From the NCBI GenBank assembly GCA_049663345.1, contig JBATDG010000087.1, forward strand, positions 33,695-97,694: 64,000 bases of DNA. The letters run 5' to 3'. Positions 12,823-52,845 of this stretch are shown here, piece by piece. Each line of letters starts with the position of its first letter. The first letter of the stretch is position 1. Source of the stretch: Bacteroidota bacterium (GTDB lineage: Bacteria > Bacteroidota > Ignavibacteria > SZUA-365). Below the pieces are notes generated by a model. That model did no database searches. It was not told the DNA's origin and was given only the letters and a program-made list of their open reading frames with translations. The position numbers were made by a program, and so were the translations under genes.

Positions 12823-12860
12823 TAATCGCCTTTGGAACTCCATCATCAATGGCACGCGCT

Positions 12861-13820
12861 ATGAAAATTTCCCTGTTCCCCATATTTCTCATCATCCTCA
12901 TGATTACTGGCTGCAGTTCCGCAAAATTCTATTACGATGCACCGCCTCTTGCCTTCGAGGACATCGACTATGGATTCCCCATGACGACGGGAACCATCAA
13001 TGGTGTGCAGATGGCCTGGTATGACAGCGGCGGCAGCGGCGCCGTCGTTGTGCTTGTGCACGGACTCGCGAGCAATGCCGGCTTCTGGCGCTACAATGTT
13101 TCCGCCTTGGTTTCCGCCGGTTTCCGTGTGATCGCCGTCGACCTTCCCGGTTACGGGAAGTCTGCAAAAGCTTACGCTACGCCCTATGGAATGGCCTTCT
13201 ACGCAAAAACGCTCGATGCCCTGCTGCAAAAGCTCTCGATTGAAAAGGCCACAATTGCCGGACATTCGATGGGCGGACAGATCGCCATGACCATGGTCCT
13301 GCAGGGGAGTGCGCGCGCAGAGCGGCTGTTACTGCTGTCGCCAGCGGGGATCGAGCGCTTCAAGGACGGCGAAGGCCGCTGGCTGAAGGACGCCGTGTCT
13401 CCCGCTTTCGTCATCAATACTCCCGAAGACCGCATACGCGCGAATCTCGCATCGAATTTCTATTGCTGGCGCGATGACCTGGAATGGATGGTGGAGGAAC
13501 GCGTGCGAATGGCGAAGGACCCCGCGTTCGAGCGGTTCGCCTACGTCGTCTCGCGCTGCGTCGCCGCTATGGTCGAGGAACCGGTTTGGCAAAGTCTGGA
13601 CAAGCTCAACGTGCCTATTCTCGTGCTCGCCGGTGAAAAGGATAATCTGATCCCTAATCCATATCTGCATGGAGGGACTACGCAGGGAGTGATGGAGAAT
13701 GGCGTCGCGCAGCTGCCTTCGGCACGGCTGCAGATGATTCCCAGTGCAGGACACATGATTCAGATCGAGAAACCCGAGCTGATCAACGAGGCTATGATTG
13801 CTTTTCTCAAGGGATCGTAA
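12861..13820 (+). CDS. Alpha/beta-hydrolase fold lipoprotein
   Basis: Lipoprotein signal MKISLFPIFLIILMITGCSS. Motifs VLVHGLASNAGFW and GHSMGG (nucleophile elbow). Confidence 0.75.
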   Translation: MKISLFPIFLIILMITGCSSAKFYYDAPPLAFEDIDYGFPMTTGTINGVQMAWYDSGGSGAVVVLVHGLASNAGFWRYNVSALVSAGFRVIAVDLPGYGKSAKAYATPYGMAFYAKTLDALLQKLSIEKATIAGHSMGGQIAMTMVLQGSARAERLLLLSPAGIERFKDGEGRWLKDAVSPAFVINTPEDRIRANLASNFYCWRDDLEWMVEERVRMAKDPAFERFAYVVSRCVAAMVEEPVWQSLDKLNVPILVLAGEKDNLIPNPYLHGGTTQGVMENGVAQLPSARLQMIPSAGHMIQIEKPELINEAMIAFLKGS

Positions 13821-13821
13821 T

Positions 13822-13862
13822 CCGGATCAACTCGTAACCCGGATCAACTCGTAACCCGGATC
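13822..13862. repeat. Short tandem repeat, about 2.4 copies of a 17-bp unit (CCGGATCAACTCGTAAC)
   Basis: Read directly from the sequence. Confidence 0.85.
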
Positions 13863-26989: not shown

Positions 26990-27047
26990 CCAGGTCCCGG
27001 CGGTTAACTTTTTTTACACCTCCCCAAATGCAGACAGATCCAGCCGC

Positions 27048-32021: not shown

Positions 32022-32087
32022 CCTGCCGTAGTTAAACCGATCTAGCACACATAGCCCCTCCCGCCCCGGTCGGAGTGAGAAACAAGG

Positions 32088-32113
32088 AAAAAGTCCGCAT
32101 TTGCGGGCTTTTT
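32088..32113. terminator. Bidirectional rho-independent terminator (AAAAAG-hairpin-CTTTTT)
   Basis: CCGCA-TT-TGCGG stem flanked by an A-run and a T-run. Confidence 0.6.
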
Positions 32114-32175
32114 CCGTATGCATCGGTAGCAGAGAGACGACCGGGCTAGTCCGAAAGCACTATTCAATTCATTCC

Positions 32176-32195
32176 CTATGCAGATCCCTGCATAG
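32176..32195. promoter_or_regulatory. Perfect 8-bp inverted repeat CTATGCAG-ATCC-CTGCATAG inside a motif (CAATTCATTCCCTATGCAG) shared with the paralogous site at 34788..34835. It is a candidate operator
   Basis: Read directly. The paralogous intergenic region carries an expanded 16-bp palindrome built on the same TGCAG core. Confidence 0.5.
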
Positions 32196-32403
32196 TTTTT
32201 CAGTGCGCTGCATACTGCGAAGATTAACATTTTGTAAGATTCGTGCAGCATCATCATATGGATAACTGCTCCGATTTCCTTTCAGTTTTCAACCGTTGCT
32301 TTAGTGTTCGGCTCCTATCCTGTTGATTGACAACAGATCCGCATCACGGCAAGCAGGTCTAAATCCCCTATTTCAGGGGCAATTCCCCCCACATTGTGAA
32401 TTA

Positions 32404-32419
32404 TGGCACGATTTGTGAA
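32404..32419 (+). promoter_or_regulatory. Sigma-54-like -24/-12 promoter candidate (TGGCACGATTTGTGAA). The -24 box is perfect and the -12 box is degenerate
   Basis: TGGCACG sits about 55 nt upstream of the start codon at 32476. The paralogous position at 35014 has a full consensus. Confidence 0.4.
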
Positions 32420-32475
32420 CAAATAAGGGAGAATCGAAGACTAAGCTCATGATGTTTTATGAGGAAAGTGCTGTG

Positions 32476-34263
32476 ATGAAAAATCAGATACCGATTGGTA
32501 AAACAATTATCCTTGCAATTACACTATGCATGTTCGGATTCGGGACGCAGGCGAGTGCAGCAACACGGACTTGGTCCGCTTTTGCGGCTACCACTTCATG
32601 GGGGACTGCCTCAAATTGGGTTGAGAATGCAGTCCCAGCTTCTGGTGATGACGTTGTTTTCCTTAATTCCGCTACTGTGGTACTCGAGAGTGCGACTCAA
32701 ATCGGTACATTGACACTTTCCGCTGGTGCGGACGTCGGCTTCACCGCGAACGGCCTGCTAACCATCACAGGAACGCTTACCTTGGGTGCGGGATCAGAGA
32801 TCAATCTTGGGAATGGAACAGCCTCCTACCCGCTGCAATTAAATGGAAATATCCTTTTTGCTGATGGCAACAGTGCATCGGATCCTACTAGAATCTACTC
32901 TTCAGTCATCCCTTGGAAGCTTATCAAAATCAGCAGTGCTTCTCACATCTCCATGGGAGGAATTGCGAACGCTTACTTTGGTGATCATACGACGACGTTG
33001 ATCCAGCTAAATGCACAGCCATTCACTTCGGATGTTCGATTTGAGGGTAATCTTCAATTCACTACGACAAACAACATTCTGCTTGGGGCGAATAACTTAT
33101 ATCTGGGCAAGTCTTGCGAACTCACAGTTACTGCGGTATTCCCTAGTGGTGATGGATTTATTGCGACTGACGGTACCGCAGCAACTCCGCAAGGGACTGT
33201 GCGCCGTCAGTTTGATGCTGTAGCCGATTCATTTTATTTCCCTGTTGGCCCTGTCGGTGGACGAATGTCGCCGATCCGCATCAAAATTATTCCACCATCA
33301 ACTAGTGCTATCTTTACATCCGCTTCACCCTGGCCGTATATCTCTGTCCGCTGTTTGTTAAATTCGAGCGGATCGACAGGCGGACATCCGATGAATTTTG
33401 ATAATTCAAGAATCTGGGTGTATTGGCCTGTGAAGGGCGTCGGGATTTCGGAGCCTGCTTATCTTTCAGGCCGAATGTACCTCCATACGAATTATCGTAG
33501 CGGAGATCCTAAAATCTATTCTGCTCGTTGGACTCCGAACTACGAAGACCTCGGTTCGCTTGGAATATGGGATTTGACTGGCTCCTTACCCGGAACGACA
33601 ACAGGGAATACTCGGGAGGTGCCCTTTTCTGGATGCCCGGGTTTCGGAGACTTTAATATTGGAACAGGAATTGCCGGCGATCCTCTTCCCGTCGAACTCA
33701 CTTCCTTCAGCGCCCGCTACATTGATCGTTCGGTGCGGTTGAACTGGAACACAGCGACGGAGCTGAATAACTACGGCTTCTCGATCGAGCGTTCGCAGGA
33801 CAATGAGACATGGGAAGAAGTCGGCTTTGTGGAAGGCTACGGCACTTCGCTTAGTCCTAAGAGCTACACTCATACGGACATGCTGACGGATGACCTCGCG
33901 AAGGTTCCGCAGCTGGCCTATCGTCTGCGTCAGATCGATCGTGACGGCACCACGGATTACTCGAATATCGTGTTTGTGAAGACGGGCACATTGCCCGCGG
34001 GCGTAGAAATGTACGCTGCATATCCGAATCCCTTCAACCCCTCCACGACGCTGAGCTTTACGATTCAGGACCCTGCGACTGTGAATCTGAAGGTGTACAA
34101 TACCTTCGGTCAGGAAGTCGCAACCCTGCTGAGCAGCAGTGCGATGGATGCGGGCCTGCACACGGTCTCCTTTAATGGAGAGCAGCTCCCGAGCGGCGTG
34201 TACATGGCAGTGCTGGAGGCGAACGGTACGCTGCAGCAGCAAAAGTTTGTGCTCAACAAGTGA
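32476..34263 (+). CDS. Adhesin-like secreted protein: signal peptide, beta-helix-like N-terminal repeats, conserved pre-CTD module and a T9SS C-terminal sorting domain
   Basis: Signal peptide MKNQIPIGKTIILAITLCMFGFGTQASA. N-terminal TRTWSAFAATTSWGTASNWVENAVPASGDDVVF (autotransporter-passenger-like repeat). LNWNTATELNNYGFSIERS module. C-terminal YPNPFNPSTTLSFTI...GVYMAVL tail. Confidence 0.75.
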   Translation: MKNQIPIGKTIILAITLCMFGFGTQASAATRTWSAFAATTSWGTASNWVENAVPASGDDVVFLNSATVVLESATQIGTLTLSAGADVGFTANGLLTITGTLTLGAGSEINLGNGTASYPLQLNGNILFADGNSASDPTRIYSSVIPWKLIKISSASHISMGGIANAYFGDHTTTLIQLNAQPFTSDVRFEGNLQFTTTNNILLGANNLYLGKSCELTVTAVFPSGDGFIATDGTAATPQGTVRRQFDAVADSFYFPVGPVGGRMSPIRIKIIPPSTSAIFTSASPWPYISVRCLLNSSGSTGGHPMNFDNSRIWVYWPVKGVGISEPAYLSGRMYLHTNYRSGDPKIYSARWTPNYEDLGSLGIWDLTGSLPGTTTGNTREVPFSGCPGFGDFNIGTGIAGDPLPVELTSFSARYIDRSVRLNWNTATELNNYGFSIERSQDNETWEEVGFVEGYGTSLSPKSYTHTDMLTDDLAKVPQLAYRLRQIDRDGTTDYSNIVFVKTGTLPAGVEMYAAYPNPFNPSTTLSFTIQDPATVNLKVYNTFGQEVATLLSSSAMDAGLHTVSFNGEQLPSGVYMAVLEANGTLQQQKFVLNK

Positions 34264-34302
34264 GAGTGGAAAGAGAGAGAGCACATTAGCCGAAGACGTG
34301 AA

Positions 34303-34326
34303 GGCGGGGTTTTGAGAGGCCCCGCC
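34303..34326 (+). ncRNA. Conserved stem-loop in the cargo 3' region (GGCGGGG-TTTTGAGAGG-CCCCGCC) with no downstream U-tract
   Basis: The paralogous hairpin at 36927..36960 keeps the loop (TTGTGAGAGG) while both stem arms change in a compensatory way. Confidence 0.5.
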
Positions 34327-34376
34327 TCTCACGCATTCTCTGAAGAATTTGGAAGGAAACAGGTTGGAAACAGTGA

Positions 34377-34691
34377 ATGCAAATGGGAATCGATCAGCGG
34401 AGCAGAGTTATAATGGAGATACCGTTTTCGTTTTCGCAGTATGCGTATCCGTTGAACCCAAGTGCGACCGTGAGCTTTACCCTGGAAGAACAACAGGAAG
34501 TCTCCTTGAGGATTTATAACACGTTCGGACAGGTAGTGCACACGCTCTACGAAAACGTTCAGATGAAAGCCGGATACCATGAATTGAGGCTCTACGGCGA
34601 AACCTTCCCCTCAGGTGGATGCTACGCCAGGCTTCATACAAAAAATGGAGTTCAGCAGCGCACATTGGTGCTGAGCACCGACAACAACTGA
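34377..34691 (+). CDS. CTD-only minigene: a free-standing T9SS C-terminal sorting domain (104 aa) with no signal peptide and no cargo domain
   Basis: The whole ORF matches the Por-tail (YAYPLNPSATVSFTL...GGCYARL). It is about 80% identical to the second minigene at 37051..37365, and both ORFs are intact. Alternative start M13 (34413). Confidence 0.55.
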   Translation: MQMGIDQRSRVIMEIPFSFSQYAYPLNPSATVSFTLEEQQEVSLRIYNTFGQVVHTLYENVQMKAGYHELRLYGETFPSGGCYARLHTKNGVQQRTLVLSTDNN

Positions 34692-34736
34692 CCCCTGAGG
34701 CTACAACCAAGGTAGGTTGATAAAGATTGAGAGGAG

Positions 34737-34766
34737 AAAAAAGTCCGCCGCAAGCGGGCTTTTTTC
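34737..34766. terminator. Bidirectional rho-independent terminator
   Basis: A-run, stem AGUCCGC/GCGGGCU with loop CGCAA, then a T-run. Confidence 0.6.
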
Positions 34767-34801
34767 TTGTTACAGGGTGGAGGTATGCAATTCATTCCCT
34801 A

Positions 34802-34835
34802 TGCAGTGGATTGCATATCTATGCAATCCACTGCA
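34802..34835. promoter_or_regulatory. Perfect 16-bp inverted repeat TGCAGTGGATTGCATA-TC-TATGCAATCCACTGCA, preceded by the shared CAATTCATTCCCTATGCAG motif. It is a candidate operator
   Basis: Read directly. Confidence 0.5.
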
Positions 34836-35013
34836 TGCTATTTTCATTAAGATCACATATAAATAATCACGGGTGCGATTTAGGAAAAAGATGCTATATC
34901 TTAAATTACCAGTTGGAGGAAGCTGGCTATCTCGTTGTTTAGCTTTATCTAGCCGCTCATCTCATGAGGGCGTCAATGAGGACAAAGCATATCTTCAATA
35001 GAACGGATACTTT

Positions 35014-35029
35014 TGGCACGTTTTATGCA
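35014..35029 (+). promoter_or_regulatory. Sigma-54 -24/-12 promoter (TGGCACGTTTTATGCA), with the GG and GC dinucleotides at consensus spacing
   Basis: Matches TGGCAC-N5-TTGCA at every position except one. It lies 60 nt upstream of the start at 35090. Confidence 0.6.
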
Positions 35030-35089
35030 TTTGTTAAGATCAAATACGAATAGACGTGATGCATTTCAGTAAGGCAAGAAATACTAACC

Positions 35090-36891
35090 ATGCAGAAATA
35101 TAGACTGTTTGTGAAAATCGGCCTGCTGGCGGCAATCCTTTTCTATATGGGACTCGGATCTGACGCCTTCGCTGTCACCCGGACCTGGGTAGGTGTCGGA
35201 CTTGGCAATTGGAACACTGCTCTCAACTGGAGGCCTAGCAGCGTCTCGGGTATTACCGGAAACACCGGTGATGCCGTGATTATTAACACCGTCTCGACGA
35301 TTACCATGAATGCTTCTTCAAACATCACGATCGCATCATTGCCCATTTCTGCGTCGAGTGTTGGACTCATTTCGGATAAAAAGATAACCACAGGGTCATT
35401 GACGGTTTCAGGTTCACTTGTTCTCAGCTATGTGAGTGCTGGAGGTGCGGCGAACAATATTTTTGATATCACCGGTGCAATGAGCCTTACTGCTCCGGTA
35501 TTATCTCTCGCTCGGGTTCCTGGGTGAGTACGGATGTCAAGATAAATATCGGCAGGAGAGGTACAGGCACAATAACCATGGCGGCGATTGCGAATAATTA
35601 CATCGCCTACCATGTCAACACTAGTATTGCTCGCAAACCTGTCCTGCTTTCCGATGTGAGATTTGAAGGAGACATTAATCTGCCTTCAGGAATTTCTCTT
35701 GGCACTGATGACCTGTATCTAGGGATCAACGCAGACGTGCTTACTCCGAATGCTGAAATCGGTGACCCAGGGAACTGCATCGAAGTTTCCGGCGGGAATA
35801 CAACTCCCTCCGGTGTTGTACGCAAACAGTATACTGCCGTAAATGACGCGTTCACCTTTAATGTGAGTCCCGGTACCGGCCGGTTGTCGCCCATCACGAT
35901 CAAGGTCATCAGCCCGACGCCATCCTCCTCATTTACAAGTGCTGTTCCCTGGCCGCATATCTTTGTCCGCGTCGTTCTCAATAATGGTGGAAACGGCGGA
36001 CACCCCGCGAATCAGCAGTCGCAAAAAGTCGGGGTTCACTGGCCGGTTAAAGGCTACGGAATCAACACTCCGGTATATTTCTCCGGTGTAATGACTTCCC
36101 ATAACAACTACAGGAACGGATCAGCTAACGATCTGTATTCAGCCCGCTACGCTCCAAGCTACGAAGATAACCTTTTTAATAGCGGTTGGGACCTCACCGG
36201 AACACAGCAAGTCACGACTACGAGCGGTGACCTTCGAAGCGTCCCGTTTAACGGCTTCCCCGGCTTTGGTGATTTCACCATCGGTTTTGGAGATCCCTTT
36301 GGCGGCGACCCTGTACCCGTCGAGCTCACTTCCTTCAGCGCACGCTATATCGATGGTTCGGTTCGCTTGAACTGGAATACCGCGACCGAGCTTAATAACT
36401 TCGGCTTCGCCATCGAGCGTTCGCAGGATTCGAAGAACTGGGAAGAAGTCGGCTTCGTGCAGGGCTACGGAACTTCCAGCAGCCCGAAGAGCTATTCGCA
36501 TACCGATGTGCTTACGGACGACCTTGCACGCACTCCGCAGCTCGCTTACCGTCTGCGTCAGATGGATCGCGACGGCACAATTGATTACTCGAACATCGTT
36601 TTTGTCAAAACGGGCGAACTGCCCGCCGGCGTCGAACTTTACGCTGCCTATCCGAATCCCTTCAACCCCGCAACTACGATCAGCTTTACTGTCAAGGAGT
36701 CTGCGAACGTAAACCTGAAGGTGTACAACACCTTCGGTCAGGTAGTCGCGACCCTGCTCAGCAACAGCTCAATGGATGCCGGCCTGCACACGATGTCGTT
36801 CAACGGAAATGACCTTCCGAGCGGCGTGTACATGGCAGTGCTTGAGGCGAGCGGTGAACTGCAGCAGCAGAAGCTTGTGCTCAACAAGTGA
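35090..36891 (+). pseudogene. Paralogue of cargo gene 32476..34263. It is split by a frameshift near 35520 into ORFs 35090..35527 (signal peptide plus N-terminus) and 35524..36891 (beta-helix, pre-CTD module, T9SS CTD)
   Basis: The two ORFs jointly align along the full length of the 604-aa paralogue (145+455 aa). The frame changes from phase 2 to phase 1. This could be a genuine pseudogene, a sequencing error or programmed slippage. Confidence 0.55.
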
Positions 36892-36926
36892 GAGTGGAAG
36901 AGGTGAGTGAGCACAATTAATCGATA

Positions 36927-36960
36927 CGCGAGGCGGAGTTGTGAGAGGCTCCGCCTCGCG
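36927..36960 (+). ncRNA. Conserved stem-loop (CGCGAGGCGGAG-TTGTGAGAGG-CTCCGCCTCGCG), paralogue of 34303..34326
   Basis: Same loop sequence with covarying stems. Confidence 0.5.
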
Positions 36961-37050
36961 TAAGATTTAAAGTGAAAGACGGACTGGGGAATTAGGAATT
37001 ACGAATTAAGAATTACGAATTACGAACTTTGAAGAAGCAGGAAAGAGTTA

Positions 37051-37365
37051 ATGGAGCTGGGAATGGAATCGCGGAACAGAGAAAAGATGGATATTCCGTT
37101 TACATTTTCGCAGTATGCGTATCCGTTGAACCCGAGCGCAACTCTGAGTTTCACCCTTGACGAAGCACAGGAAGTGTCGCTGAAAATTTACAACATGTTC
37201 GGACAGGTGGTGCGTACGCTCTACGAAAGGGTTCAGATGAAAGCCGGGTACCATGAATTGAGGCTCTATGGAGAGACCTTTCCGGCCGGAGGTTGTTACG
37301 CGCGGCTCCACACAACAAAGGGAGTTCAGCAGCGCACGTTGATGCTGAGCACCGAGAATTCCTGA
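37051..37365 (+). CDS. CTD-only minigene 2 (104 aa, free-standing T9SS C-terminal sorting domain)
   Basis: AGGAAAG ribosome-binding site 7 nt upstream of the ATG. The sequence FSQYAYPLNPSATLSFTL...GGCYARL is about 80% identical to 34377..34691. Confidence 0.55.
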   Translation: MELGMESRNREKMDIPFTFSQYAYPLNPSATLSFTLDEAQEVSLKIYNMFGQVVRTLYERVQMKAGYHELRLYGETFPAGGCYARLHTTKGVQQRTLMLSTENS

Positions 37366-37412
37366 CCCTTGATGGTCGGCCGGGTGAGTTGACGAAGAGA
37401 GAGATTGAAGTG

Positions 37413-37456
37413 AAAAAAAGTCCGCCGTACGCAGTTTGCCGTAGGCGGACTTTTTT
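37413..37456. terminator. Bidirectional rho-independent terminator
   Basis: A7-GTCCGCC...GGCGGAC-T6. Confidence 0.7.
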
Positions 37457-37529
37457 CTTACGGTTGCTGATGTGAATTCGGAGTTCCCTATATTATGTAC
37501 GGAGTACCTAACGGAAGCAGCGCCGCAAC

Positions 37530-38912
37530 ATGCCGGAAAAAGAGAAAATTGATGTCCTGATTGTCGATGATGAGGAGCAGATCTGTTTCGTGCTCACTCA
37601 TCTGCTTAAAGTGCATGGCTATGGCTCACGCATAGCGCCCCGCGGAGACCGTGCACTGCGGATGATTGAGGATCAGCGCCCGGATCTCATTATCATGGAT
37701 ATTCGGATGCCGGGAATGAGCGGCTTTGATGTGCTCGAACGTATCCGGGAGTTTGATACAGATGTTCCTGTAATCCTGATGACAGCCCTGCCGGGGGTGC
37801 GTGATGCAGTCCACGCAATGAAGGCGACGGCTTTCGACTACATTGCAAAACCATTCGACAATAACCACATGGTCGGAACAGTTGAACGCGCACTTAGTGT
37901 TGCAGCAGACCTGCGCCGGAATGAAAAATATACAGACCGGTCGCCGGAGCCGCTTCACCCGCTGTTCGCGGCTATGGGCAGCAGCCTGGCCGTACGAAGA
38001 CTTGCGCGTGAAAGCGGACGAATCGCGAATTCTGCTAATCCGGTAATGATCATTGGAGAAATCGGAACAGGCAAGCGCCACCTCGGAAAAATTCTTCATA
38101 CACTCAGTGAACGCCAGGGATCCTTTCTCAACATCGATTGCACAGGCGCTAGCGAATTGATCCTGCGGCAGGAACTGTTCGGTTCCGCTATCGGAACCGG
38201 GCACCGAGGGAAGCTTGAACTGGCGGATCAGGGCACGCTTCTTCTTGATGAGGTTTCAGAGATTCCGTGGACGTTCCAGGAAATCCTCTCCGAAGCCCTG
38301 CATCAAAAGGAATTCTCCGCACCAGCCAGCGAAGAGATGATCCCGATTGCATGCCGACTTCTTTTCGCTTCGAGTATTGCACCGGATAGAGGTATCGATG
38401 GCAACTTCCTGACGCCTCGTTTCCGTGAGCTTTTCGGAGAAGCGATCATCGAAGTGCCGCCGCTCCGGGAACGGCATGAGGACATCCCCATCCTCGCTCT
38501 GGAATTTCTCCAGGATGCGAACAGGGAGCTGGGGCGAAATATGGTAGTGATCTCGGATGCCGCACTCGAAAAGTTGGTTTCCTATCATTGGCCTGGAAAT
38601 GTGCATCAGCTTAAATCCACGATTCGGCGAGCCACTCTGACCTCCAAGGATACTATCGGGATCGATGACATCGATCTCCCGATTTCTCACCACGATGCAA
38701 CGATGGATGACGGTATTGCTGCAAGCGTCGCTGTCGCCGGCGCTCCGCTGAAGGAACAAGTGAAGCGGCATATTGCCGAGGTCGAAAGGCAGCTCGTCTT
38801 TGAAACACTGCGGCAAACTGGCTGGAATAAAGCCCAGGCCTCAAGACTTCTGGGAGTTACGTATAAAACATTATTGAAAAAAGTCAGCGATTATGGCCTC
38901 GAACGACAATAA
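37530..38912 (+). CDS. Sigma-54-interaction-domain response regulator homologue (REC-AAA+-HTH) whose GAFTGA loop is deleted or degenerate
   Basis: REC (DLIIMDIRMPG), Walker A GEIGTGKR and a Fis-type HTH. The segment equivalent to ESELFGHEKGAFTGA reads QELFGSAIGTGHRG. Confidence 0.8.
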   Translation: MPEKEKIDVLIVDDEEQICFVLTHLLKVHGYGSRIAPRGDRALRMIEDQRPDLIIMDIRMPGMSGFDVLERIREFDTDVPVILMTALPGVRDAVHAMKATAFDYIAKPFDNNHMVGTVERALSVAADLRRNEKYTDRSPEPLHPLFAAMGSSLAVRRLARESGRIANSANPVMIIGEIGTGKRHLGKILHTLSERQGSFLNIDCTGASELILRQELFGSAIGTGHRGKLELADQGTLLLDEVSEIPWTFQEILSEALHQKEFSAPASEEMIPIACRLLFASSIAPDRGIDGNFLTPRFRELFGEAIIEVPPLRERHEDIPILALEFLQDANRELGRNMVVISDAALEKLVSYHWPGNVHQLKSTIRRATLTSKDTIGIDDIDLPISHHDATMDDGIAASVAVAGAPLKEQVKRHIAEVERQLVFETLRQTGWNKAQASRLLGVTYKTLLKKVSDYGLERQ

Positions 38913-38948
38913 GCTGCCCTTCCACAGTACTCTGATGGAGGCTTCATT

Positions 38949-40016
38949 GTGAAAAAGAAAATTCCACAAATTCCCGTGCAGCTCGAACAGCTGCTTCAAA
39001 TCCTTCCTGACGCCGCGTACATTCTCGATGGCGCGGGAATTATTCTCTATGCAAATCCAGCCGTCCACAGGCATACCGGATGGGAATCAGCCCAGCTGGT
39101 CGGTCAGTGCGTCGCTGATTCGCTGCTTTTTGCGCTCCCGTTTCGTTCGTCACTCATGGGCAGCCTCCTCGAGCAAGGAGTGTGGGAGGGTGAATCCGAG
39201 CGGATCCGCCCCGATGGCAGTCTCAACACAGTCCAGGCGCTTTGGCAGGGTCTCCCGGATCCGGATGGGGCCGCAAGATTCATCGGCATAGATCGGGACA
39301 TCTCGGAACTCCGCACACAGGAGCTTGAACTACAGCAGTGCCGCAAACTCGCAAAGATCGGCATCCTCTCTGAAGGTATCGCACACGAATTGCGGAATCC
39401 GCTGAGCTACGCGCTTTCCGCCGCACAGCTTCTCAACGAAGATACGCTGCCGGAGGAAGTGCGCCAGAAATGTGTTCAAACCATCACAATGGGTGTAAAA
39501 AAAGCTGGACTGATTGTCGAAAACATGCTTTCGCTCGGTAGGCCACAAACACAGATTACACGGCAGCGAGTCAACATCGTGCTCGTTCTCGCAGAGGCTA
39601 TTGAAGCGGCCTCATCGCATGCGAACTATTCCGCTGTCCGTATTTTTCAGCGTCTTCCCGGCGAAACATTATTCGTCTCTGGTAATCACGATATGCTTGT
39701 TCAGGTTTTTCATAACGTCATCACCAATGCCCTGAATGAAATGCCGAACGGCGGCAGCATTACGGTGAGCGGGGAAAATAGCACTGATAGTATTCGGATA
39801 TCTGTGTCTGATACGGGCCCCGGCATACCTGAGGAGCATATCGACAAGCTCTTCGATCCGTTTTATTCAGCGTCTTCGTCCGGTACAGGCACCGGTCTGG
39901 GACTGACGCTCAGCTACTTTATCATGAAAGAGCATGCGGGAAGTATCGAAGTGGAAGCGCACCCGGGTTCGGGTGCAACATTTGTACTGACTTTCCCCGG
40001 GTTCAACGAATCGTAA
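38949..40016 (+). CDS. Cytoplasmic PAS sensor histidine kinase
   Basis: A PAS-like N-terminus, H-box LAKIGILSEGIAHELRNPL and HATPase_c motifs (DTGPGIPEEHIDKLFDPFY..GTGLGL). Confidence 0.85.
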   Translation: MKKKIPQIPVQLEQLLQILPDAAYILDGAGIILYANPAVHRHTGWESAQLVGQCVADSLLFALPFRSSLMGSLLEQGVWEGESERIRPDGSLNTVQALWQGLPDPDGAARFIGIDRDISELRTQELELQQCRKLAKIGILSEGIAHELRNPLSYALSAAQLLNEDTLPEEVRQKCVQTITMGVKKAGLIVENMLSLGRPQTQITRQRVNIVLVLAEAIEAASSHANYSAVRIFQRLPGETLFVSGNHDMLVQVFHNVITNALNEMPNGGSITVSGENSTDSIRISVSDTGPGIPEEHIDKLFDPFYSASSSGTGTGLGLTLSYFIMKEHAGSIEVEAHPGSGATFVLTFPGFNES

Positions 40017-47612: not shown

Positions 47613-49373
47613 TCAGGAACAGCGCCGGACGATCAGCATCGTGATGTCATCCGACTGATTCGCACCCACTGTAAATGCTACGATTTCATCGCGAATATAC
47701 TTGAGGAGAGCATCTGCCGAGAGATCTCTCTGATCGGTAAGGAGCTGCTGCAGACGTTCATCACTGAATTCCTCCATCTCCTCCGACATGGCCTCATTTA
47801 CACCGTCGGTGTAGCAGACAATCATATCATCCGGCGCCAGCTGCACAGTCTCGAGACTGTAGGGGGGCGTATCCTTCATAATGCCGAGTATCAGACCTCC
47901 GGCATCAAGTGCGCGCATACTGCCGTCGGCATGCAGCAAGTAGGGAGGGTTGTGTCCGGCGTTTACATACGAAAATGTGTTATCCTGTGTGTTCAGGATT
48001 CCCCAGAAAAAGGTGATGAACTTGTCGGCGGAAGTATTGCCATGAATGATGGTGTTGATTCGGGCCGTGGCATCGGGCATGGGAAGACGGAGGGGAGCGA
48101 TGGTCCGCAAGGCGGCCTGCACGTTTGCCATAAGCAATGAAGCCGGCACTCCCTTCCCTGCAACATCTCCAATGGCGAGCACAAACTCGTGGTCGGAAAG
48201 TGAAATCACGTCGTAGTAATCGCCGCCCACCTGCTGCGACGAATCGTTTATCGCAGCGATCTCGTAGCCATTCAGCGATGGAATTGATTTCGGAAGAAGA
48301 CCCTTTTGTATTGTTTTCGCGACGCTCAGTTCCTGTTCCATCCGCTGCTTATCGATAGTCTCAATTACCAGTCGCGCATTCTCGAGTGCGGAAATAGTAA
48401 TGTTGGCAAGCGCGTGGAGGTATTCGAGCTCCGTGCGATCGAAGTTTGCTCCGCCGACTCGCTGACCCAGGCAGAGCATGCCGCGCACACGATGCTGCGA
48501 CATCATAGGGATCAATGTCGTGATGCCCATATCGAAAAGCCACTGTTCGTGCGGGTGCTCCGGTTGGCGCTGCGCGGAAAAAAGCACGGTCTCGTGCAGA
48601 TTTTCAAGCGCTTGCTGATGTCCTGCATCTGCTTCGAATTCGGGAAGCTTCACCGCTACAGGCTGCAAATTGCTTCCGTCATGCGTGAACACGGCATAAC
48701 GGAGAACGCGCAGCTGTCCCATAAGCGCATAGCTCAGAATTCGAAGAATGTCATCGGGTGCGAACGTCGTATTCATTTCCCGGCTGATCTCAAATAGGGT
48801 GTTCATCTCCTGAATCTTGGTATCAAGCCGTCGATTTACCTGGCGGAGATTTTCAATGGCCAACGCGTTCTTCACTGCCGTGGCTGCTACGGCGGCAACC
48901 GATTCCAGAAATGTCAGATCCGCCGTCTCGAAGGGCTTGCCGGTGATCTTTCGTCCCAGACCGATTATGCCGACCATGTGATCCTTAAGCAGCATCGGAA
49001 CAATTATTTCCAGGCCGCATTCGAGGGAACACGCCCCAAATTGCTTCAGCGACGGATCCTCGGTTTCGTTGAGGGAGGCGACAGAAATGACATGATCCCA
49101 ACCAATGGGAATGGTGAAATCGGAATCAATATTCTCAAGGGAAAACCCCTTTACCGAGCGGACCCGATAAGTTTGATCGCCCCTTTCCAGAAGTACAACT
49201 CCCCGCGTAACCATCAACTTTCCCATCGAGGAAAGCAGAATATTTCCCAGAATGAAATCGAAGTCCGTAGAGGCATTCAGCACGTTGCTTAGCTCCAACA
49301 GCGCGGCGCTGTCGGAAATGATGTCATACGCGGAATGAGAATAATCTGCCGGCATTTCTGAGAATAAGTTCAA
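47613..49373 (-). CDS. GAF-domain PP2C (SpoIIE/RsbU-type) serine phosphatase
   Basis: GDVAGKGVPASLLMA and YTDGVNEA PP2C motifs, with GAF-like domains N-terminal. Confidence 0.8.
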   Translation of the reverse strand: MNLFSEMPADYSHSAYDIISDSAALLELSNVLNASTDFDFILGNILLSSMGKLMVTRGVVLLERGDQTYRVRSVKGFSLENIDSDFTIPIGWDHVISVASLNETEDPSLKQFGACSLECGLEIIVPMLLKDHMVGIIGLGRKITGKPFETADLTFLESVAAVAATAVKNALAIENLRQVNRRLDTKIQEMNTLFEISREMNTTFAPDDILRILSYALMGQLRVLRYAVFTHDGSNLQPVAVKLPEFEADAGHQQALENLHETVLFSAQRQPEHPHEQWLFDMGITTLIPMMSQHRVRGMLCLGQRVGGANFDRTELEYLHALANITISALENARLVIETIDKQRMEQELSVAKTIQKGLLPKSIPSLNGYEIAAINDSSQQVGGDYYDVISLSDHEFVLAIGDVAGKGVPASLLMANVQAALRTIAPLRLPMPDATARINTIIHGNTSADKFITFFWGILNTQDNTFSYVNAGHNPPYLLHADGSMRALDAGGLILGIMKDTPPYSLETVQLAPDDMIVCYTDGVNEAMSEEMEEFSDERLQQLLTDQRDLSADALLKYIRDEIVAFTVGANQSDDITMLIVRRCS

Positions 49374-49443
49374 ATTGATTGACGTGAATCGTAAAATATA
49401 CGCATTCGTCAGGTGGGGAGAAAGGTTGTGTTTTATTGCACAC

Positions 49444-49660
49444 GGAGGAGGTGGAAAGGTTAAAAGGTTAAAAAGTTAAAAGGTTAAAAAGTTAAAAGGT
49501 TAAAAGGTTAAAAGGTCAAAGGGTGAAGAGGGAAATAAGGGGAATGAGGGAAATAAGGGAAATGAGGGAAATAAGGGGAATGAGGGGAAGAGGGGGAAGA
49601 TGGGGAAGAGGAGGAAGAGGAGGGAGAGGAGAAGAGGGGAAGGGGAGGTAAAAGGATAGT
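49444..49660. repeat. A ~215-bp homopurine tract with essentially no cytosine (pyrimidine-rich on the coding strand) inside the partner-switching operon. It is built from nested microsatellites
   Basis: One C in about 215 nt on the + strand. Three sub-arrays: GGTTAAAA(A) x ~8, GGGAAATAAGGGGAATGAG x 3 and GGAAGAGG-like x ~8. Flanked by the RsbW-like gene end (49660) and the PP2C gene start (49373). Confidence 0.9.
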
Positions 49661-50112
49661 CAGGCCGGAAGGTATTTGATCATGCGAATGGTGTTGCGGT
49701 CGCTGACGGAGGGGCCGTATTCGACTTCGTCCATGAGTTTTTTCATCAACACGATGCCGAGGCCGCCGTGGCGGAGTTTCTTGAAGTACTCAGTCATGTC
49801 GGGGGCAGTGTATTTGCTGCTATCAAAGGAGACTCCGCTGTCCAGAATCTCGACAATGAATTTCCTGGTTTTCTCGCTTCCCTGCTGAACACTAAGGCGG
49901 ATTTCGATGATGCCGTCGGGATTATATCGGTAGGCGTGCTTGATAATGTTGGTGCAGGCTTCGTCGATTGCGAGTTCGATTTTCCCAACATCACCTTCGC
50001 CGAACCCAAATTGCCGCGCTGCGTCTGAAACGAAGGTCCTCATGTCAGCCAGAAGTTCGGTTTTACTCTGGATCTGCAGGGTCTGGATGGTATGTTTATT
50101 CTGACTTGTCAA
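49660..50112 (-). CDS. Anti-sigma regulatory factor (RsbW/SpoIIAB-like serine kinase, HATPase_c)
   Basis: ELAIDEACTNIIKHAY and GGLGIVLMKKLMDEV motifs. Confidence 0.8.
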   Translation of the reverse strand: MTSQNKHTIQTLQIQSKTELLADMRTFVSDAARQFGFGEGDVGKIELAIDEACTNIIKHAYRYNPDGIIEIRLSVQQGSEKTRKFIVEILDSGVSFDSSKYTAPDMTEYFKKLRHGGLGIVLMKKLMDEVEYGPSVSDRNTIRMIKYLPA

Positions 50113-50152: not shown

Positions 50153-50518
50153 TTACGAAGGATTTTCGGATTTGTTCAGGAATTTGTTCACTGCTTCCGC
50201 TTCATCCTTGAAAATCTCGTACAGCATCGGGAAACCGAGCAAATCAAAGACGTTGTACACCCTGGTGGACATGTTGCTTAATTTGATGTCCCCCTCATTA
50301 TTACGGACATCCTCAATGAATTGCATCAGTACTCCAAGTCCTGCACTGCTGATGTAGGAGAGGTCGCTGAAGTTGACAACAATATTATACCTGGCCTCGC
50401 TCAGATGCTTCTGAAAGGCTCTTTCCAGTTCAGGCGCTGTATGGGCATCTAAATAGCCCTTCAACTCAAGAATGGAAACGGTATCCTGTTGTCGGATACC
50501 TACCGAAAATTCACTCAT
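50153..50518 (-). CDS. STAS-domain anti-sigma-factor antagonist (RsbV/SpoIIAA-like)
   Basis: The phosphorylatable-serine motif DLSYISSAGLGVL. 121 aa. Confidence 0.8.
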   Translation of the reverse strand: MSEFSVGIRQQDTVSILELKGYLDAHTAPELERAFQKHLSEARYNIVVNFSDLSYISSAGLGVLMQFIEDVRNNEGDIKLSNMSTRVYNVFDLLGFPMLYEIFKDEAEAVNKFLNKSENPS

Positions 50519-50577: not shown

Positions 50578-52701
50578 TCAAACTACTCCATTCCAGCGCA
50601 GTACCAGAACGGTGATGTCATCTTCCGCTTCTGCACGTTCACTGTAGATTTTTACGTTGTGCAGAATGGCATTCAGAATATTCTCCGACGGTTCCGCTAC
50701 AGCACTGGCCACTGTTTCACCAAGGCGCGAGTATTGGAATTCTTCGTCCTGCGGGTTCCTCGCTTCGGTAACGCCATCGGTGTACATCACAATTATGTCG
50801 TCCGCTTCAAGCACCAGCGACTCCTCACGCAGTGAATTCGCAAATCGCTCGGTTCCGTCCAGCCCAAGCGCCATGCCTTCCGGCTGAAGGAAGTTGCTCA
50901 CGCCCCGGCGCACATGCAGCAGCGGACAATGCCCGGCGCGTGAAAAAGATAAGGTACCTGTCTCAATATTCAGCACGGCATAGAGCAGGCTGATGAAGGA
51001 TTTTCGCTCCATGCTGTGGCATAGCGGCGTGTTCATGCGGATCAGGATGTCGCGGGTAGAAGCGCCATTCCCGCTCAGCGATTGGAAAATTCCCTTCACC
51101 TGTGCCATGTACAACGCGGCTGACACGCCTTTGCCGGATACGTCGCCGACTACGAATCCGATATGAGCGGCATCGAGCGGCAGCACGTCATAATAGTCAC
51201 CGCCCACCTCGTAAGCAGGAATGGATCGCGCGGCGATTTCAAAAAATGGAGAGGCGGGGAGTACCTGCGGCAGCAGGCTGCGCTGCATCTGCTGGGCAAC
51301 AAGCAGTTCCTGCTCCATGCGTTCTTTAACGATGGACTCCCTGATGAGCGTGCTGTTTTCGATTGCGACTGACACCATATCAGCGAACGCCGCGAGGACA
51401 TTGACAACATCCTTATCGAAGGCGTATGATTCACGCTTCGTCACAGACAGCAATCCGATAATTTCACCATGACTACTGAGTGGAACCATCACCAGCGTGC
51501 CGATTTCTCCGATGCTGCGCGTCGCATTATCAAGTCGACGGTCTGAAGTGAAATCCTGAATCAGAACCGGCCCGGCAGAGTGGAATGCCAGCTGCTGCAG
51601 TGCCTGACCGTCCATGGTCCGCATATTCTCGATACGGCTAATGCTGATATTCTTCACCGAATTCTGCACAATTGCGATATCTTCGGGATTGCGGTCTCCG
51701 CGCTTCGTTTTTCCGTTATCGGGAATCAGCTCCAGCCAGGCGGCATGCCCTTCGCTTACTTCCAGGGCGAGATGCGTCGTTGTTGCGATGAGTTCATCGA
51801 AATCAAATACCTGGGTGATCAGCCGGCTCATATTCTGCAGCGTCGAGATCTCCATTTTTTTTCGGTCGAATTCCTTCGCCGTCGGCAGATGCAGGAGAGT
51901 ACTGGCGAAGCCGATGCCCATGTAGGCAGTGCCGAAATGGAAGGCGAGTGTCATGAAGGCGTATAGCATCGGGTGATATGCCCGCAGTGCATTCTGGAGA
52001 ACCTCCCCTCCGCTCGCATGGATGGAGAGGATGAAGAAAAACGCAAAACCGAAAAGTGAGAGCAGTAGATTCACCATTTTCTCTCGCCGGGTGAGAACCA
52101 GGATCCATGAGAAATGGAATGCGTTGACGAGGATTCCGACGAAAGTAAGTCCGTATGCAATGGCGGTGAAGACTTCAAGCGATTTTAACCCAAAACCGTT
52201 CGGACCCGTGAGGTATTCGAGCAGAATGAAGCAGCCACCCGTCCCCACGAAAAAGATGTAGTTGCGGCGGGTGTTTTTTCTCCGCTTAATGAAAACAAGG
52301 CGGGAGAGGGAAGTGAAGACCACGATGGCACTGATCCCGCCCAGCGCTGCGATGAGGATAGTCGTTACGAGCGTAGAGAAGGATGCCGCAGCGATGAGCC
52401 CGCCCTTGTCCACATATCTGGTAGTGACCGAGAGTTGAATGATTCCGATGAGAAGCAGGTAGATGGTCGAAAAAATGACCGTGCGCCCGATAAGCTGTAT
52501 CGGCGGCTGATCGTTGTCCATCGTGCTGCGGAAATAGTAAAGTCCGCCGCCTCCGAATGCGATGAGGACAAGGAGGGTATGAAACAAATCGCCCTCAAGT
52601 GCTCCGGATGTCGTCAATGCACGTTGAATGAACACGTACACGAAGTCCAGCACGAGTGCAGCGACAGCGGCTATGAGAAGTATTCGTTTGCGAAGATTCA
52701 T
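50578..52701 (-). CDS. Membrane-anchored sensor with a GAF domain and a PP2C (SpoIIE-type) phosphatase domain
   Basis: About 8 N-terminal TM helices. PP2C motifs VGDVSGKGVSAALYMA and YTDGVTEA. The start was set at MNLRKRILLIAAV (M35). Confidence 0.75.
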   Translation of the reverse strand: MNLRKRILLIAAVAALVLDFVYVFIQRALTTSGALEGDLFHTLLVLIAFGGGGLYYFRSTMDNDQPPIQLIGRTVIFSTIYLLLIGIIQLSVTTRYVDKGGLIAAASFSTLVTTILIAALGGISAIVVFTSLSRLVFIKRRKNTRRNYIFFVGTGGCFILLEYLTGPNGFGLKSLEVFTAIAYGLTFVGILVNAFHFSWILVLTRREKMVNLLLSLFGFAFFFILSIHASGGEVLQNALRAYHPMLYAFMTLAFHFGTAYMGIGFASTLLHLPTAKEFDRKKMEISTLQNMSRLITQVFDFDELIATTTHLALEVSEGHAAWLELIPDNGKTKRGDRNPEDIAIVQNSVKNISISRIENMRTMDGQALQQLAFHSAGPVLIQDFTSDRRLDNATRSIGEIGTLVMVPLSSHGEIIGLLSVTKRESYAFDKDVVNVLAAFADMVSVAIENSTLIRESIVKERMEQELLVAQQMQRSLLPQVLPASPFFEIAARSIPAYEVGGDYYDVLPLDAAHIGFVVGDVSGKGVSAALYMAQVKGIFQSLSGNGASTRDILIRMNTPLCHSMERKSFISLLYAVLNIETGTLSFSRAGHCPLLHVRRGVSNFLQPEGMALGLDGTERFANSLREESLVLEADDIIVMYTDGVTEARNPQDEEFQYSRLGETVASAVAEPSENILNAILHNVKIYSERAEAEDDITVLVLRWNGVV

Positions 52702-52845
52702 AGTTAATGGATTACCGGGAACCTGGCACAAGCCGGCAACAGGCACATTATCCGATATACGGGATGAATAGGCGCGGGTTGCACCGATAATATAGACAAT
52801 CACCGGCTGTTTACGAAGGAGGGAGTTGCCTGCGCAACCGGATGT

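Follow-up and report, generated by a model that had tools for sequence, protein, structure and literature searches.

In a partner-switching locus on the minus strand of a 64-kb stretch of DNA from an uncultured member of the Bacteroidota (the whole stretch is called the window here), a gene for an RsbW-like kinase of the anti-sigma-factor type (49660–50112, minus strand, 150 aa; source-MAG gene call; Pfam HATPase_c_2, E=4.6e-30) is followed by one for a GAF-GAF-PP2C phosphatase of the SpoIIE type (47613–49355, minus strand, 580 aa; Pfam SpoIIE, E=3.8e-48, and GAF_3, E=3.2e-18). An earlier note on this DNA had started the phosphatase at a TTG codon at 49373, but the ATG at 49355 is likelier, as it is the start of the 580-aa source-MAG call and orthologues match from residue 1. 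The rsbW frame closes with a TGA stop codon (49660–49662, minus strand), and 11 nt past it begins a tract of highly unusual composition. On the plus strand, the 217 nt from 49444 to 49660 hold 95 A, 94 G, 27 T and a single C, at position 49517; at the C frequency of the window, the probability of finding at most one C in 217 nt is 1.4e-27. The two longest C-free runs of the window, 143 and 73 nt, both lie inside the tract, and no C-free or G-free run of at least 40 nt occurs elsewhere in the 64 kb. The tract is thus the compositional extreme of the window, and none of the window's other intergenic regions shows a similar bias. These counts bear out the cytosine-poor tract of ~215 bp that the earlier note had described, its position between the two genes and its pyrimidine richness on the transcribed (minus) strand. 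The label of strict homopurine goes too far, given the 27 T and a longest pure purine run of 47 nt (49602–49648, plus strand).

Assembly error does not explain the tract: an independent k-mer assembly (Logan SRR28060544) recovers it from both sides, the only break being in an array of octamers at its promoter-proximal end. Because Logan contigs break within this array, two of them (L002 and L084) stopping inside it, octamer copy number is the single uncertain detail.

Downstream of the tract, 45 nt ahead of the PP2C ATG, lies a TATATTT box (49394–49400, minus strand) that is likely to be the -10/-7 promoter element of the phosphatase gene. It is unchanged in an alignment of eight species in which its flanks vary, and it is one of seven TATATT sequences, among 16 in the window, that lie 36–93 nt upstream of a gene start on the same strand. 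Nineteen nucleotides further upstream is a CTTTC element (49420–49424, minus strand), its TT invariant in the eight species, which, going by the Bacteroidota promoter consensus, we take to be the -33 element. The tract ends about 45 nt upstream of the box and ~20 nt upstream of this -33-like element. A sigma-70 promoter scan of 49200–49800 returned a single weak plus-strand match and no terminator; as the tool lacks a Bacteroidota promoter model, we called the promoter from cross-species conservation and the distribution of TATATT in the window. The idea that the tract forms a polypyrimidine leader of the phosphatase message is therefore right as to the pyrimidine-rich transcribed strand but wrong as to the leader, since the invariant box lies downstream of the tract; being upstream of the PP2C promoter, the tract would enter RNA only through read-through from rsbW.

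We rejected a structured RNA and a coding sequence as explanations. Comparison of the full 64 kb with Rfam at gathering thresholds gave no match, nor did 49250–49750 at E≤1, and no tRNA or tmRNA genes were found in the 64 kb. The ORFs of the tract are all repeat-derived, namely one of 42 aa on the plus strand and minus-strand open frames that are meaningless because CT-only sequence cannot hold stop codons. No plausible minus-strand ORF crosses the tract, because the octamer array supplies TAA in all three frames.

Repeat anatomy of the spacer

Tandem Repeats Finder (TRF) resolves an 8-mer present 8.8 times (49455–49524), an 18-mer present 4.4 times (49519–49598) and a degenerate 9-mer present 12.9 times (49528–49641), matching the three-array organisation described earlier. 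In minus-strand order, the spacer opens with an 11-nt linker, CTATCCTTTTA (49649–49659, read from the sequence), which leads from the rsbW stop to the first C-rich array. There follows an irregular array made of C and T only, in CCTCTTCC and CTTCCCC-type units (49582–49648), which includes the uninterrupted 47-nt run; the orthologous spacers of the relatives L168 and L167 hold similar arrays, of CTTTCCCC and CTCTCCCC. Next come six 9-mers, found by TRF and by pattern search, in which TCATTCCCC and TTATTTCCC alternate so as to form an 18-mer repeated three times (49530–49583), then a decayed unit and then CCCTTTGACC, reaching to about 49510. Both this 9-mer and the CCCTTTGACC flank recur in L008 and L169. 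The octamer array (49455–49524, by TRF) consists of seven to eight copies of TTTTAACC or TTTTAACT and appears to derive from a TTTGACC element that precedes it; at the same position L174 has (ATTTGACC)x5. The 3' end of the C-free tract reads CCACCTCCTCC on the minus strand (49444–49454) and abuts a small palindrome, GTGTGCAATAAAACAC, of the form TGTG-N8-CACA (49428–49443, minus strand), which in the centroid structure is the sole stable hairpin of the spacer RNA. We considered this palindrome as a CRP/FNR-like site and dropped that reading because it is conserved in no relative.

Within the window, arrays of the 9-mer and 8-mer units occur at the tract only, and there are four short-unit arrays in the 64 kb altogether. 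The repeat units differ from one another at ~15 variant positions, too few to tell avoidance of G from an ordinary excess of transitions. Copy number varies in close kin: two strains of a sister species, with PP2C genes that are 99.66% identical, carry eight and three copies of the same 9-mer in the orthologous spacer, and three and six copies in a second array. This comparison makes plausible the earlier suggestion that the repeats are prone to slippage. For the source species itself, the protein clusters consist of identical sequences only, from two MAGs and Logan contigs.

The orthologous spacer in related genomes

We measured the spacer in relatives by anchoring on the C-terminal peptide of RsbW, and in about nine related species found a C-rich, G-poor spacer at the rsbW-PP2C position, with differing repeat units. 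Within the clade of at least 70% PP2C identity, all full-length spacers, meaning those that reach from the rsbW stop to the promoter box, are 87–259 nt long and 74–91% pyrimidine, with (C-G)/(C+G) of 0.45–0.86. The C-rich strand is the sense strand in every such spacer. Spacer sequences and repeat units are unrelated across this clade, and the spacers of L003 and L005 keep the bias with no detectable tandem structure, so that composition is conserved across species and sequence is not. None of the clade's spacers contains a terminator-like hairpin, and no intrinsic terminator (a GC-rich stem-loop with a T-run) is present in the window between 49200 and 49800. In the next clade, with 66–68% identity, all five spacers (L171 and L009–L012) have a hairpin-plus-T-run terminator at the position of the tract, immediately ahead of the same promoter box. 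C-rich tracts and intrinsic terminators are thus distributed in a complementary manner among the relatives. That a composition is kept through complete turnover of sequence, in place of the hairpin terminator of the next clade, is the most informative result of this analysis.

L004 and L166 have an rsbW-PP2C gap of only 17–22 nt, already CT-rich, and no promoter box, from which it follows that co-transcription of the two genes is tolerated. At the orthologous spot L016 has arrays that are not CT-rich, and it carries five CGATTTA arrays in 10 kb; the TTGCCATC array of L085 is only moderately G-poor. In L008/L169 and in L171, C-rich arrays also lie directly behind the PP2C2 stop codon. Among the relatives, short tandem arrays with units that are not C-rich (CGATTTA, GAAGTCA, CAATGAA, TGGTGCG and TCAACTAA) occur at like positions, and since such arrays fill the same kinds of position, the habit of building repeats is independent of C-richness. 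Across 21.7 kb of L008, all 12 copies of the 9-mer CATTCCCCT are on one strand, in three arrays that bracket both transcription units of the partner-switching locus, with none in the other ~17 kb. All three arrays are oriented to yield C-rich RNA toward the partner-switching genes, two of the three lie directly upstream of TATATT boxes, and one occupies a divergent promoter region and lacks a co-directional gene upstream.

A candidate Rho-loading element and its alternatives

The earlier note had proposed a pyrimidine-tract RNA-binding protein as a ligand of the tract, a reasonable idea for which the termination factor Rho is the obvious candidate. We tentatively read the tract as a terminator or insulator that is built from repeats, loads Rho and separates the rsbW operon from the PP2C promoter, and give this reading a probability of about 40%. 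A cluster of short tandem repeats, generated by slippage, would furnish ~215 nt of minus-strand RNA that is C-rich, almost devoid of G, free of structure and not translated, and this RNA could act as a loading platform (rut site) for Rho. Polymerases finishing the PP2C1-STAS-rsbW operon would then come off the template ahead of, or close to, the downstream promoter, and the second phosphatase gene would be expressed chiefly from its own TATATTT promoter. The tract would do the work of the hairpin-plus-T-run terminator found at this position in more distant relatives, and the instability of its repeats would let its length, and with it the degree of read-through, drift between strains. Rho binding, termination and tuning by repeat length are what we infer from the features that follow and from the comparison of relatives, in which the conserved composition, its complementarity to intrinsic terminators, the C-rich arrays behind the PP2C2 stop codon and the shared orientation of the three L008 arrays all speak for this reading.

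Sites of the rut type are sought as a C>G bubble of at least about 78–80 nt on the non-template strand, with at least four YC dinucleotides chained at 9–13-nt spacing, little RNA structure and no translating ribosomes. Here the minus-strand bubble runs from 49237 to 49790 (477 window positions, area 11,909 %.bp, maximum 59%) and is the largest in the 64 kb, the runner-up having an area of 4,877. The spacer contains 92 YC dinucleotides, of which the longest chain at that spacing counts 13, and YC density in the tract is four times the background. The best 78-nt segment (49572–49649, minus strand) has 46 C, no G and 45 YC, compared with 78-nt means across the window of 0.9 for C-G (sd 6.4) and 11 for YC (sd 3.7). 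The minimum free energy of the 266 nt across the tract is only -5.2 kcal/mol, the lone stable hairpin lying outside the tract, and the tract follows the rsbW stop, with no plausible ORF to carry ribosomes across it. In E. coli and Salmonella, templates with a bubble of >78 bp or an area of >700 %.bp all showed Rho-dependent termination in vitro, but C>G bubbles are common and insufficient as predictors (PMC6144790). When untranslated, an artificial (UC)15 repeat brings about Rho-dependent termination efficiently (Guerin et al. 1998, as reported in PMC5021804 and PMC12360218). Rho itself is known in Bacteroides, and the Rho of Bacteroidota carries a large inserted domain (PMC12360218); no rho gene is among the ORFs of the window.

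Several observations count against Rho. At 217 nt, the tract is far longer than Rho needs, and the 17–22-nt junctions of L004 and L166, the divergent-promoter array of L008, the arrays that are not C-rich and the moderately G-poor L085 all fit poorly. A more general proposal, in which short tandem repeats at transcription-unit boundaries of this Bacteroidota/Ignavibacteria-related lineage are evolvable directional insulators, C-rich arrays acting through Rho or through template G-quadruplexes, and slippage makes them a rheostat of read-through, seems to us improbable. Under that proposal, a change in copy number would heritably set the co-expression of the kinase/antagonist half with the second phosphatase, and an insulator encoded in repeat length would stand in place of fixed hairpin terminators.

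One main rival, somewhat less probable than the Rho reading, is a functionless, hypervariable repeat cluster: slippage would have amplified short units in an ancestrally CT-rich, insertion-tolerant spacer, among them the CT-rich -33 region, and the C-free composition would simply be inherited from these seeds. Intergenic short-unit arrays are common in the group, with genome-specific units, and the window alone has its four; the units turn over fully between species of about 80% protein identity, and copy number varies between 99.7%-identical strains. The L168 unit CTTTCCCC resembles the -33-like CTTTC region, the L016 arrays at the same spot are not CT-rich and the short spacers of L004 and L166 are CT-rich already. 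What such a cluster does not readily account for is that the bias persists in about nine species despite complete turnover, even in L003 and L005 with their lack of tandem structure, that the sense strand is without exception the C-rich one, that distribution is complementary to that of intrinsic terminators and that the bias is absent from other intergenic regions of the window. Even a functionless cluster would leave the locus useful, as a hypervariable marker documented in these MAGs and as a spot where contigs break time and again. The earlier note's own idea of an element that switches or tunes phosphatase expression, here taken to act heritably on the PP2C promoter through upstream geometry or the number of binding sites, has polymorphic copy number in homologous arrays of the sister species in its favour, as well as a tract that adjoins the promoter-upstream region and a precedent in Nostoc, where deletion of heptamer repeats near a promoter changed reporter activity (bioRxiv 10.1101/2022.06.06.494920). 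It is nevertheless quite unlikely, and as a classical phase-variation switch it finds no support, the repeats lying in neither of the two on/off positions, the -33/-7 spacer and the reading frame. Coding sequence occupies the DNA on the upstream side of the tract, which leaves no activator site there that repeat changes could shift relative to the promoter.

Two further readings turn on what the repeats might form or bind. Non-B DNA, with G-quadruplexes on the template strand, possible i-motifs and perhaps a triplex in the 47-bp run acting as a roadblock to read-through polymerases or as a supercoil-sensitive modulator immediately upstream of the PP2C promoter, is an improbable explanation despite a conspicuous motif. 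The plus strand at 49521–49605 holds ten G3+ tracts with loops of at most 7 nt and a G4Hunter maximum of 2.2, where four or more G3+ runs, loops of 1–7 nt and a score of at least 1.5 define a candidate; it is the sole canonical G-quadruplex motif on either strand of the window, lies on the template strand for rsbW and PP2C and has a complement with i-motif potential. On the same strand, the orthologous spacers of L008, L169, L168 and L167 score 2.4–2.6. Bacterial motifs of this kind show a 2.78-fold template-strand enrichment shortly past the ends of genes, and they are also enriched ahead of promoters (PMC12581993); two of the three L008 arrays directly precede TATATT boxes. Yet the CT-rich spacers of L085 and L005 have no G-quadruplex potential, those of L003 and L006 lie at the borderline, G-runs are missing from the octamer third of the tract and folding in vivo within duplex DNA stays a putative step. 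Moreover, any C-run-rich, rut-like sequence automatically gives such potential, so it does not discriminate between readings. The H-DNA that the earlier note drew from mirror repeats we reject, as mirror symmetry does not exceed that of shuffled sequence (best arm 10 nt with one mismatch, compared with 10.5 +/- 1.5 in shuffles) and 27 T interrupt the purines. Least probable of all, in our estimation, are arrays of sites for a dedicated, sequence-specific DNA- or RNA-binding protein other than Rho that co-regulates the partner-switching locus. The one-strand, locus-bracketing distribution of the L008 9-mer, and its presence in both L008 and the window species, would suit such a protein. A conserved specific binder would not, however, tolerate the wholly different units of the closest relatives (TTGCCATC, CCGCTCCTT, CTTTCCCC and CTCTCCCC); copy number is unstable, the unit is confined to one array in the window species and no candidate gene for a binder lies nearby.

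Should the Rho-loading reading hold, the tract would be among the first concrete rut candidates in the Bacteroidota, whose Rho has its unusual inserted domain. Terminator strength could evolve fast through repeat slippage, and strains could differ in how tightly the kinase module is coupled to the second phosphatase in a partner-switching stress pathway.

Comparison with known systems

The tract shares features with several known classes of element and differs from each in some respects. The contingency repeats of Neisseria and Haemophilus turn expression on or off from a position inside the promoter spacer or the reading frame. They resemble the tract in having short-unit repeats near a promoter and, going by the sister species, copy number that changes from strain to strain, but the tract lies outside both the promoter spacer and the reading frame. 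The STRR/TAACTGA heptamer arrays of Cyanobacteria, Beggiatoaceae and some Bacteroidetes (MacGregor 2015, PMC4679880) are likewise intergenic short units that are missing from the same spacer in close relatives, and contigs often end inside them. Those are 7-mers, often immediately upstream of start codons, with one unit at many loci, whereas the tract's units measure 8 and 9/18 nt, follow a stop codon and precede a promoter, are confined to one locus in the window and carry a strong strand-specific bias to C. Bacterial triplex motifs (Holder et al. 2015, PMC4666352) show a similar purine/pyrimidine strand asymmetry and link to repeat instability; their defining requirement, mirror symmetry, is at chance level here, and a T interrupts most of the purine strand every 8–9 nt. 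With the template-strand G-quadruplex motifs of the Quadrupia catalogue (PMC12581993) the tract has in common a template-strand array of G3+ tracts placed directly behind a gene and ahead of a promoter, although that trend is statistical, with no established bacterial mechanism, and the tract is unusually long at ten G-tracts and embedded in tandem repeats.

Two further parallels are with Rho-dependent terminators. Like natural rut regions such as lambda tR1 (Nadiras et al. 2018, PMC6144790; PMC12360218), the tract combines C>G skew over at least 78 nt, dense YC at 9–13-nt spacing and low folding energy outside translated sequence; known rut sites are non-repetitive and moderately skewed, whereas the tract is repeat-built and extreme (46 C and no G in 78 nt), and its dependence on Rho is putative. 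The artificial (UC)n terminator (Guerin, Robichon, Geiselmann & Rahmouni 1998, NAR 26:4895) is also a tandem, pyrimidine, G-free, unstructured and untranslated sequence placed downstream of translated RNA, and in E. coli, going by the account in PMC5021804, 15 repeats of rUrC suffice. As described there, it is synthetic, 30 nt long and built from a dinucleotide, whereas the tract is natural, ~215 nt long and 12% A, and combines an 8-mer, a 9/18-mer and an irregular array in an uncultured Bacteroidota. If it does load Rho, the tract would be the natural counterpart of this synthetic polypyrimidine-repeat terminator.

Composition and setting of the tract

The genes concerned all lie on the minus strand, in the order PP2C1 (a GAF-PP2C phosphatase, 50578-52803; 707 aa in the MAG call, 741 aa as the longest ORF), a STAS-domain protein (50153-50518), an RsbW-like HATPase_c_2 kinase (49660-50112), the tract (49444-49660), PP2C2 (a GAF-GAF-PP2C phosphatase of 580 aa) and an MFS transporter. 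Sorting domains of the T9SS type, found in other parts of the window, fit a bacterium of the Bacteroidota or an Ignavibacteria-like relative. PP2C2 had been taken to begin at 49373, where the mechanical ORF opens with TTG, yet ATG 49355 has the backing of the MAG annotation and of every orthologue. Counting bases over the 217 nt of the tract gives A95, G94, T27 and a lone C, at 49517, on the plus strand, in agreement with the earlier note's one C in about 215 nt; at the window C frequency of 0.263, a 217-nt stretch would contain one C or none with a probability of 1.4e-27. Of all C-free runs in the 64-kb window, the top two in length, 143 and 73 nt, both fall within the tract, and no C-free or G-free run of at least 40 nt occurs elsewhere in the window. 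The description of the tract as homopurine holds for its poverty in C but not strictly, the longest unbroken purine run being 47 nt (49602-49648). Its proposed organisation into three microsatellites stands: Tandem Repeats Finder (TRF) resolves an 8-mer array of 8.8 copies (49455-49524), an 18-mer array of 4.4 copies built from two diverged 9-mers (49519-49598) and a degenerate GA-rich 9-mer-like array reaching 49641. The source MAG contig (GCA_049289355.1, JBATLO010000176.1) carries exactly this sequence, and so does an independently made Logan assembly of SRR28060544, where one contig stops and a second starts within the octamer array. The tract is accordingly real, and uncertainty attaches solely to the octamer copy number.

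In an alignment of the final ~115 nt preceding the PP2C2 start codon in eight species, the sole invariant block besides the ATG is TATATTT, 35-45 nt ahead of it, with an invariant TT ~24 nt farther upstream inside a CTTTC-like -33 element. The Bacteroidota promoter consensus is TAnnTTTG. Of the 16 TATATT occurrences in the window, seven are intergenic and precede a gene start on the same strand by 36-93 nt; one of these seven precedes each PP2C gene (52789-52794 for PP2C1), and further ones lie at 17280, 22621, 37489 and 40097. TATATT is probably the -10/-7 box used by promoters of this organism in general. With its end ~45 nt upstream of the PP2C2 box, the tract can enter RNA solely through read-through from rsbW, which is at odds with the suggestion that it forms a transcribed leader of PP2C2. 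The stretch from the tract to the -33-like element contains a palindrome, TGTG-N8-CACA, with CRP/FNR-like half-sites (49428-49443). The spacer RNA has no stable hairpin other than this palindrome, which relatives do not conserve.

The spacer in relatives

We compared the spacer, from the rsbW stop codon to the TATATTT box, across species-representative genomes, metagenomes and contigs with close homologues. Where PP2C identity is at least 70% (the window, L085, L003, L167, L005, L168 and two strains of a sister species, L008/L169), it spans 87-259 nt, with 74-91% pyrimidine and a (C-G)/(C+G) of 0.45-0.86. The spacer sequences and repeat units of this group are mutually unrelated, with (TTGCCATC)n in L085, (CCGCTCCTT)3 in L006, (CTCTCCCC)n in L167, (CTTTCCCC)n in L168 and (CCCCTCATT)8 in L008, and no clear tandem structure in L003 or L005. 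At ~77-79% identity, L004 and L166 have the two genes joined by just 17-22 CT-rich nt, without a promoter box. At 66-68% (L171, L009-L012), the spacer is 50-56 nt and places a GC hairpin and T-run directly before the same promoter box. Such a terminator-like hairpin and T-run is absent from the window spacer and from all CT-rich spacers examined, so C-rich, G-poor tracts and intrinsic terminators share this position in complementary fashion across species.

L008 and L169, at 70% protein identity, also have the window 9-mer (TCATTCCCC) and the CCCTTTGACC that comes next, which makes the array at this position an old one. The window octamer TTTTAACC (seven copies) comes after that TTTGACC element, and L174, a contig of 87% nucleotide identity to L008, carries (ATTTGACC)x5 in its spacer (1-45), an independent amplification of the same element; it has no array after the PP2C stop codon. 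The conspecific L008 and L169, whose PP2C genes share 99.66% nucleotide identity, differ in spacer 9-mer copies (8 versus 3, an exact 45-nt indel) and, in the opposite direction, in a second array directly after the PP2C2 stop (3 versus 6). Logan assembly uses a k-mer size of 31 nt. As these differences run in opposite directions and the short L169 spacer array is under 31 nt, assembly collapse is unlikely. The earlier view of the repeats as slippage-prone is thus upheld for homologous arrays in relatives, where slippage-type instability is documented. Contigs of several independent assemblies (L002, L084, L165, L167, L173, L174, L006) end inside the spacer arrays or within ~250 nt of them, mostly within ~140 nt; assemblies repeatedly break here on account of the spacer repeats. 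There is good support for an origin by replication slippage, with short units rich in C and T amplified in a spacer that tolerates them.

Tandem arrays elsewhere

Across all loci compared, TRF finds that intergenic DNA in this group commonly carries tandem arrays with units of 7-10 nt, often directly beside stop codons; in L017, L037, L055, L073, L125, L137 and L171, unrelated arrays begin within ~30 nt of the PP2C stop, most within ~10 nt. In the L008 genome (contig L172), the 9-mer CATTCCCCT has 12 copies, all on the same strand and grouped into three arrays (6602-6682, 9819-9889, 11740-11773) that flank both partner-switching transcription units: one upstream of the PP2C1 box, one separating rsbW from the PP2C2 promoter, and one directly after the PP2C2 stop. 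No further copy occurs in 21.7 kb of this genome. L016, a 63%-identity relative, has five CGATTTA arrays in 10 kb (including 56-103, 521-552 and 7089-7124); at 3714-3960, its 289-nt rsbW-PP2C spacer contains ~21 CGATTTA-like heptamers and then the same unit in an inverted array, and the RNA of this spacer folds to -83 kcal/mol through the inverted pair.

The window holds a related heptamer, GAATTAC, in 5.4 copies (36989-37026), 25 nt ahead of an ORF at 37051 and directly after a GC hairpin (~36929-36960) downstream of a T9SS-tail protein gene. Around it, 25574-40016 is densely packed with signalling proteins: a hybrid kinase of 1657 aa with eight or more PAS domains (27048-32021), a PAS histidine kinase (38949-40016) and two response regulators dependent on sigma-54 (25574-26989, 37530-38912), besides two T9SS-tail proteins. 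A 16-mer array, GTTGCCTGCGTGCGCC x12.4 (92% match; 5020-5217), nearly A-free on the plus strand and crossed by a spurious ORF (4931-5269), fills the intergenic DNA separating two divergent genes, one for an aromatic amino acid lyase (3380-4915, minus) and one for a MarR/winged-helix regulator (5336-5827, plus); a KAS III gene comes after the regulator gene. A 17-mer (TCGTAACCCGGATCAAC, x2.8, 96% match) lies at 13815-13862, where an alpha/beta-hydrolase gene (12783-13820) ends.

Candidate functions and published parallels

By the 78-nt sliding window of Nadiras et al., the minus strand carries a region of C>G skew, or C>G bubble, at 49237-49790 (477 window positions, maximum 59%) with an area of 11,909 %.bp, the largest of the 64-kb window (runner-up 4,877). 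Its best 78-nt stretch has C46, G0 and 45 pyrimidine-C (YC) dinucleotides, against window-wide means of 0.9 (sd 6.4) for C-G and 11 (sd 3.7) for YC. The spacer holds a 13-member YC chain at 9-13-nt spacing, and 266 nt across the tract fold with just -5.2 kcal/mol. In E. coli/Salmonella, all tested templates with a bubble above 78 bp or an area above 700 %.bp gave Rho termination in vitro, although C>G bubbles are common and generally not sufficient for it (PMC6144790). An untranslated (UC)15 repeat is described as an efficient artificial Rho-dependent terminator in the 1998 study of Guerin et al., as relayed by PMC5021804 and listed in PMC12360218.

We tentatively read the tract as a directional element for termination or insulation, most plausibly a candidate Rho-loading site, with a probability of roughly 40%. 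Rho would load on the C-rich read-through RNA after the rsbW stop and before the PP2C2 promoter. This reading is favoured by the tract's place between stop codon and promoter, by RNA properties that fit known Rho-loading determinants, by a distribution complementary to that of intrinsic terminators and by a strand-specific C-rich, G-poor bias that survives complete sequence turnover across some nine species. Against it, no rho gene was found among the ORFs of the 64-kb window, L004 and L166 tolerate direct co-transcription, one L008 array sits in a divergent promoter region, and non-C-rich arrays hold comparable positions elsewhere. Because of these points, a functionless, hypervariable repeat cluster, although somewhat unlikely, is still a serious alternative.

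A non-B DNA element (G-quadruplex or i-motif) is unlikely. The window, both strands counted, has a single canonical G-quadruplex motif, and it does lie here (49521-49605, plus; 10 G-tracts, G4Hunter up to 2.2), on the template strand for rsbW and PP2C2; according to a recent catalogue, bacterial motifs of this kind are enriched on the template strand downstream of gene ends (PMC12581993). The same strand scores 2.4-2.6 in the spacers of L008, L169, L168 and L167; those of L085 and L005 do not qualify. Such potential follows automatically from a strand rich in C runs and does not discriminate between the readings. H-DNA formed by mirror repeats, as once proposed, finds no footing, since the mirror symmetry it requires is at shuffle level (best arm 10 nt, against 10.5 +/- 1.5). 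Copy number does vary in the homologous arrays, but promoter tuning through repeat number is quite improbable; that the arrays, with units so dissimilar between species, are sites for a specific binding protein is very improbable.

The comparative pattern is the main source of interest and yields a clean, testable prediction on repeat-built Rho terminators in Bacteroidota. Each ingredient is already known, be it the intergenic tandem repeats, the purine/pyrimidine tracts or the C>G regions resembling Rho utilisation sites; what is new is an extreme composite tract, conserved by composition, at a defined operon boundary and in place of a hairpin terminator. The closest published parallel to the repeat habit is found in the intergenic heptamer arrays of Cyanobacteria, Beggiatoaceae and some Bacteroidetes (PMC4679880; bioRxiv 10.1101/2022.06.06.494920).
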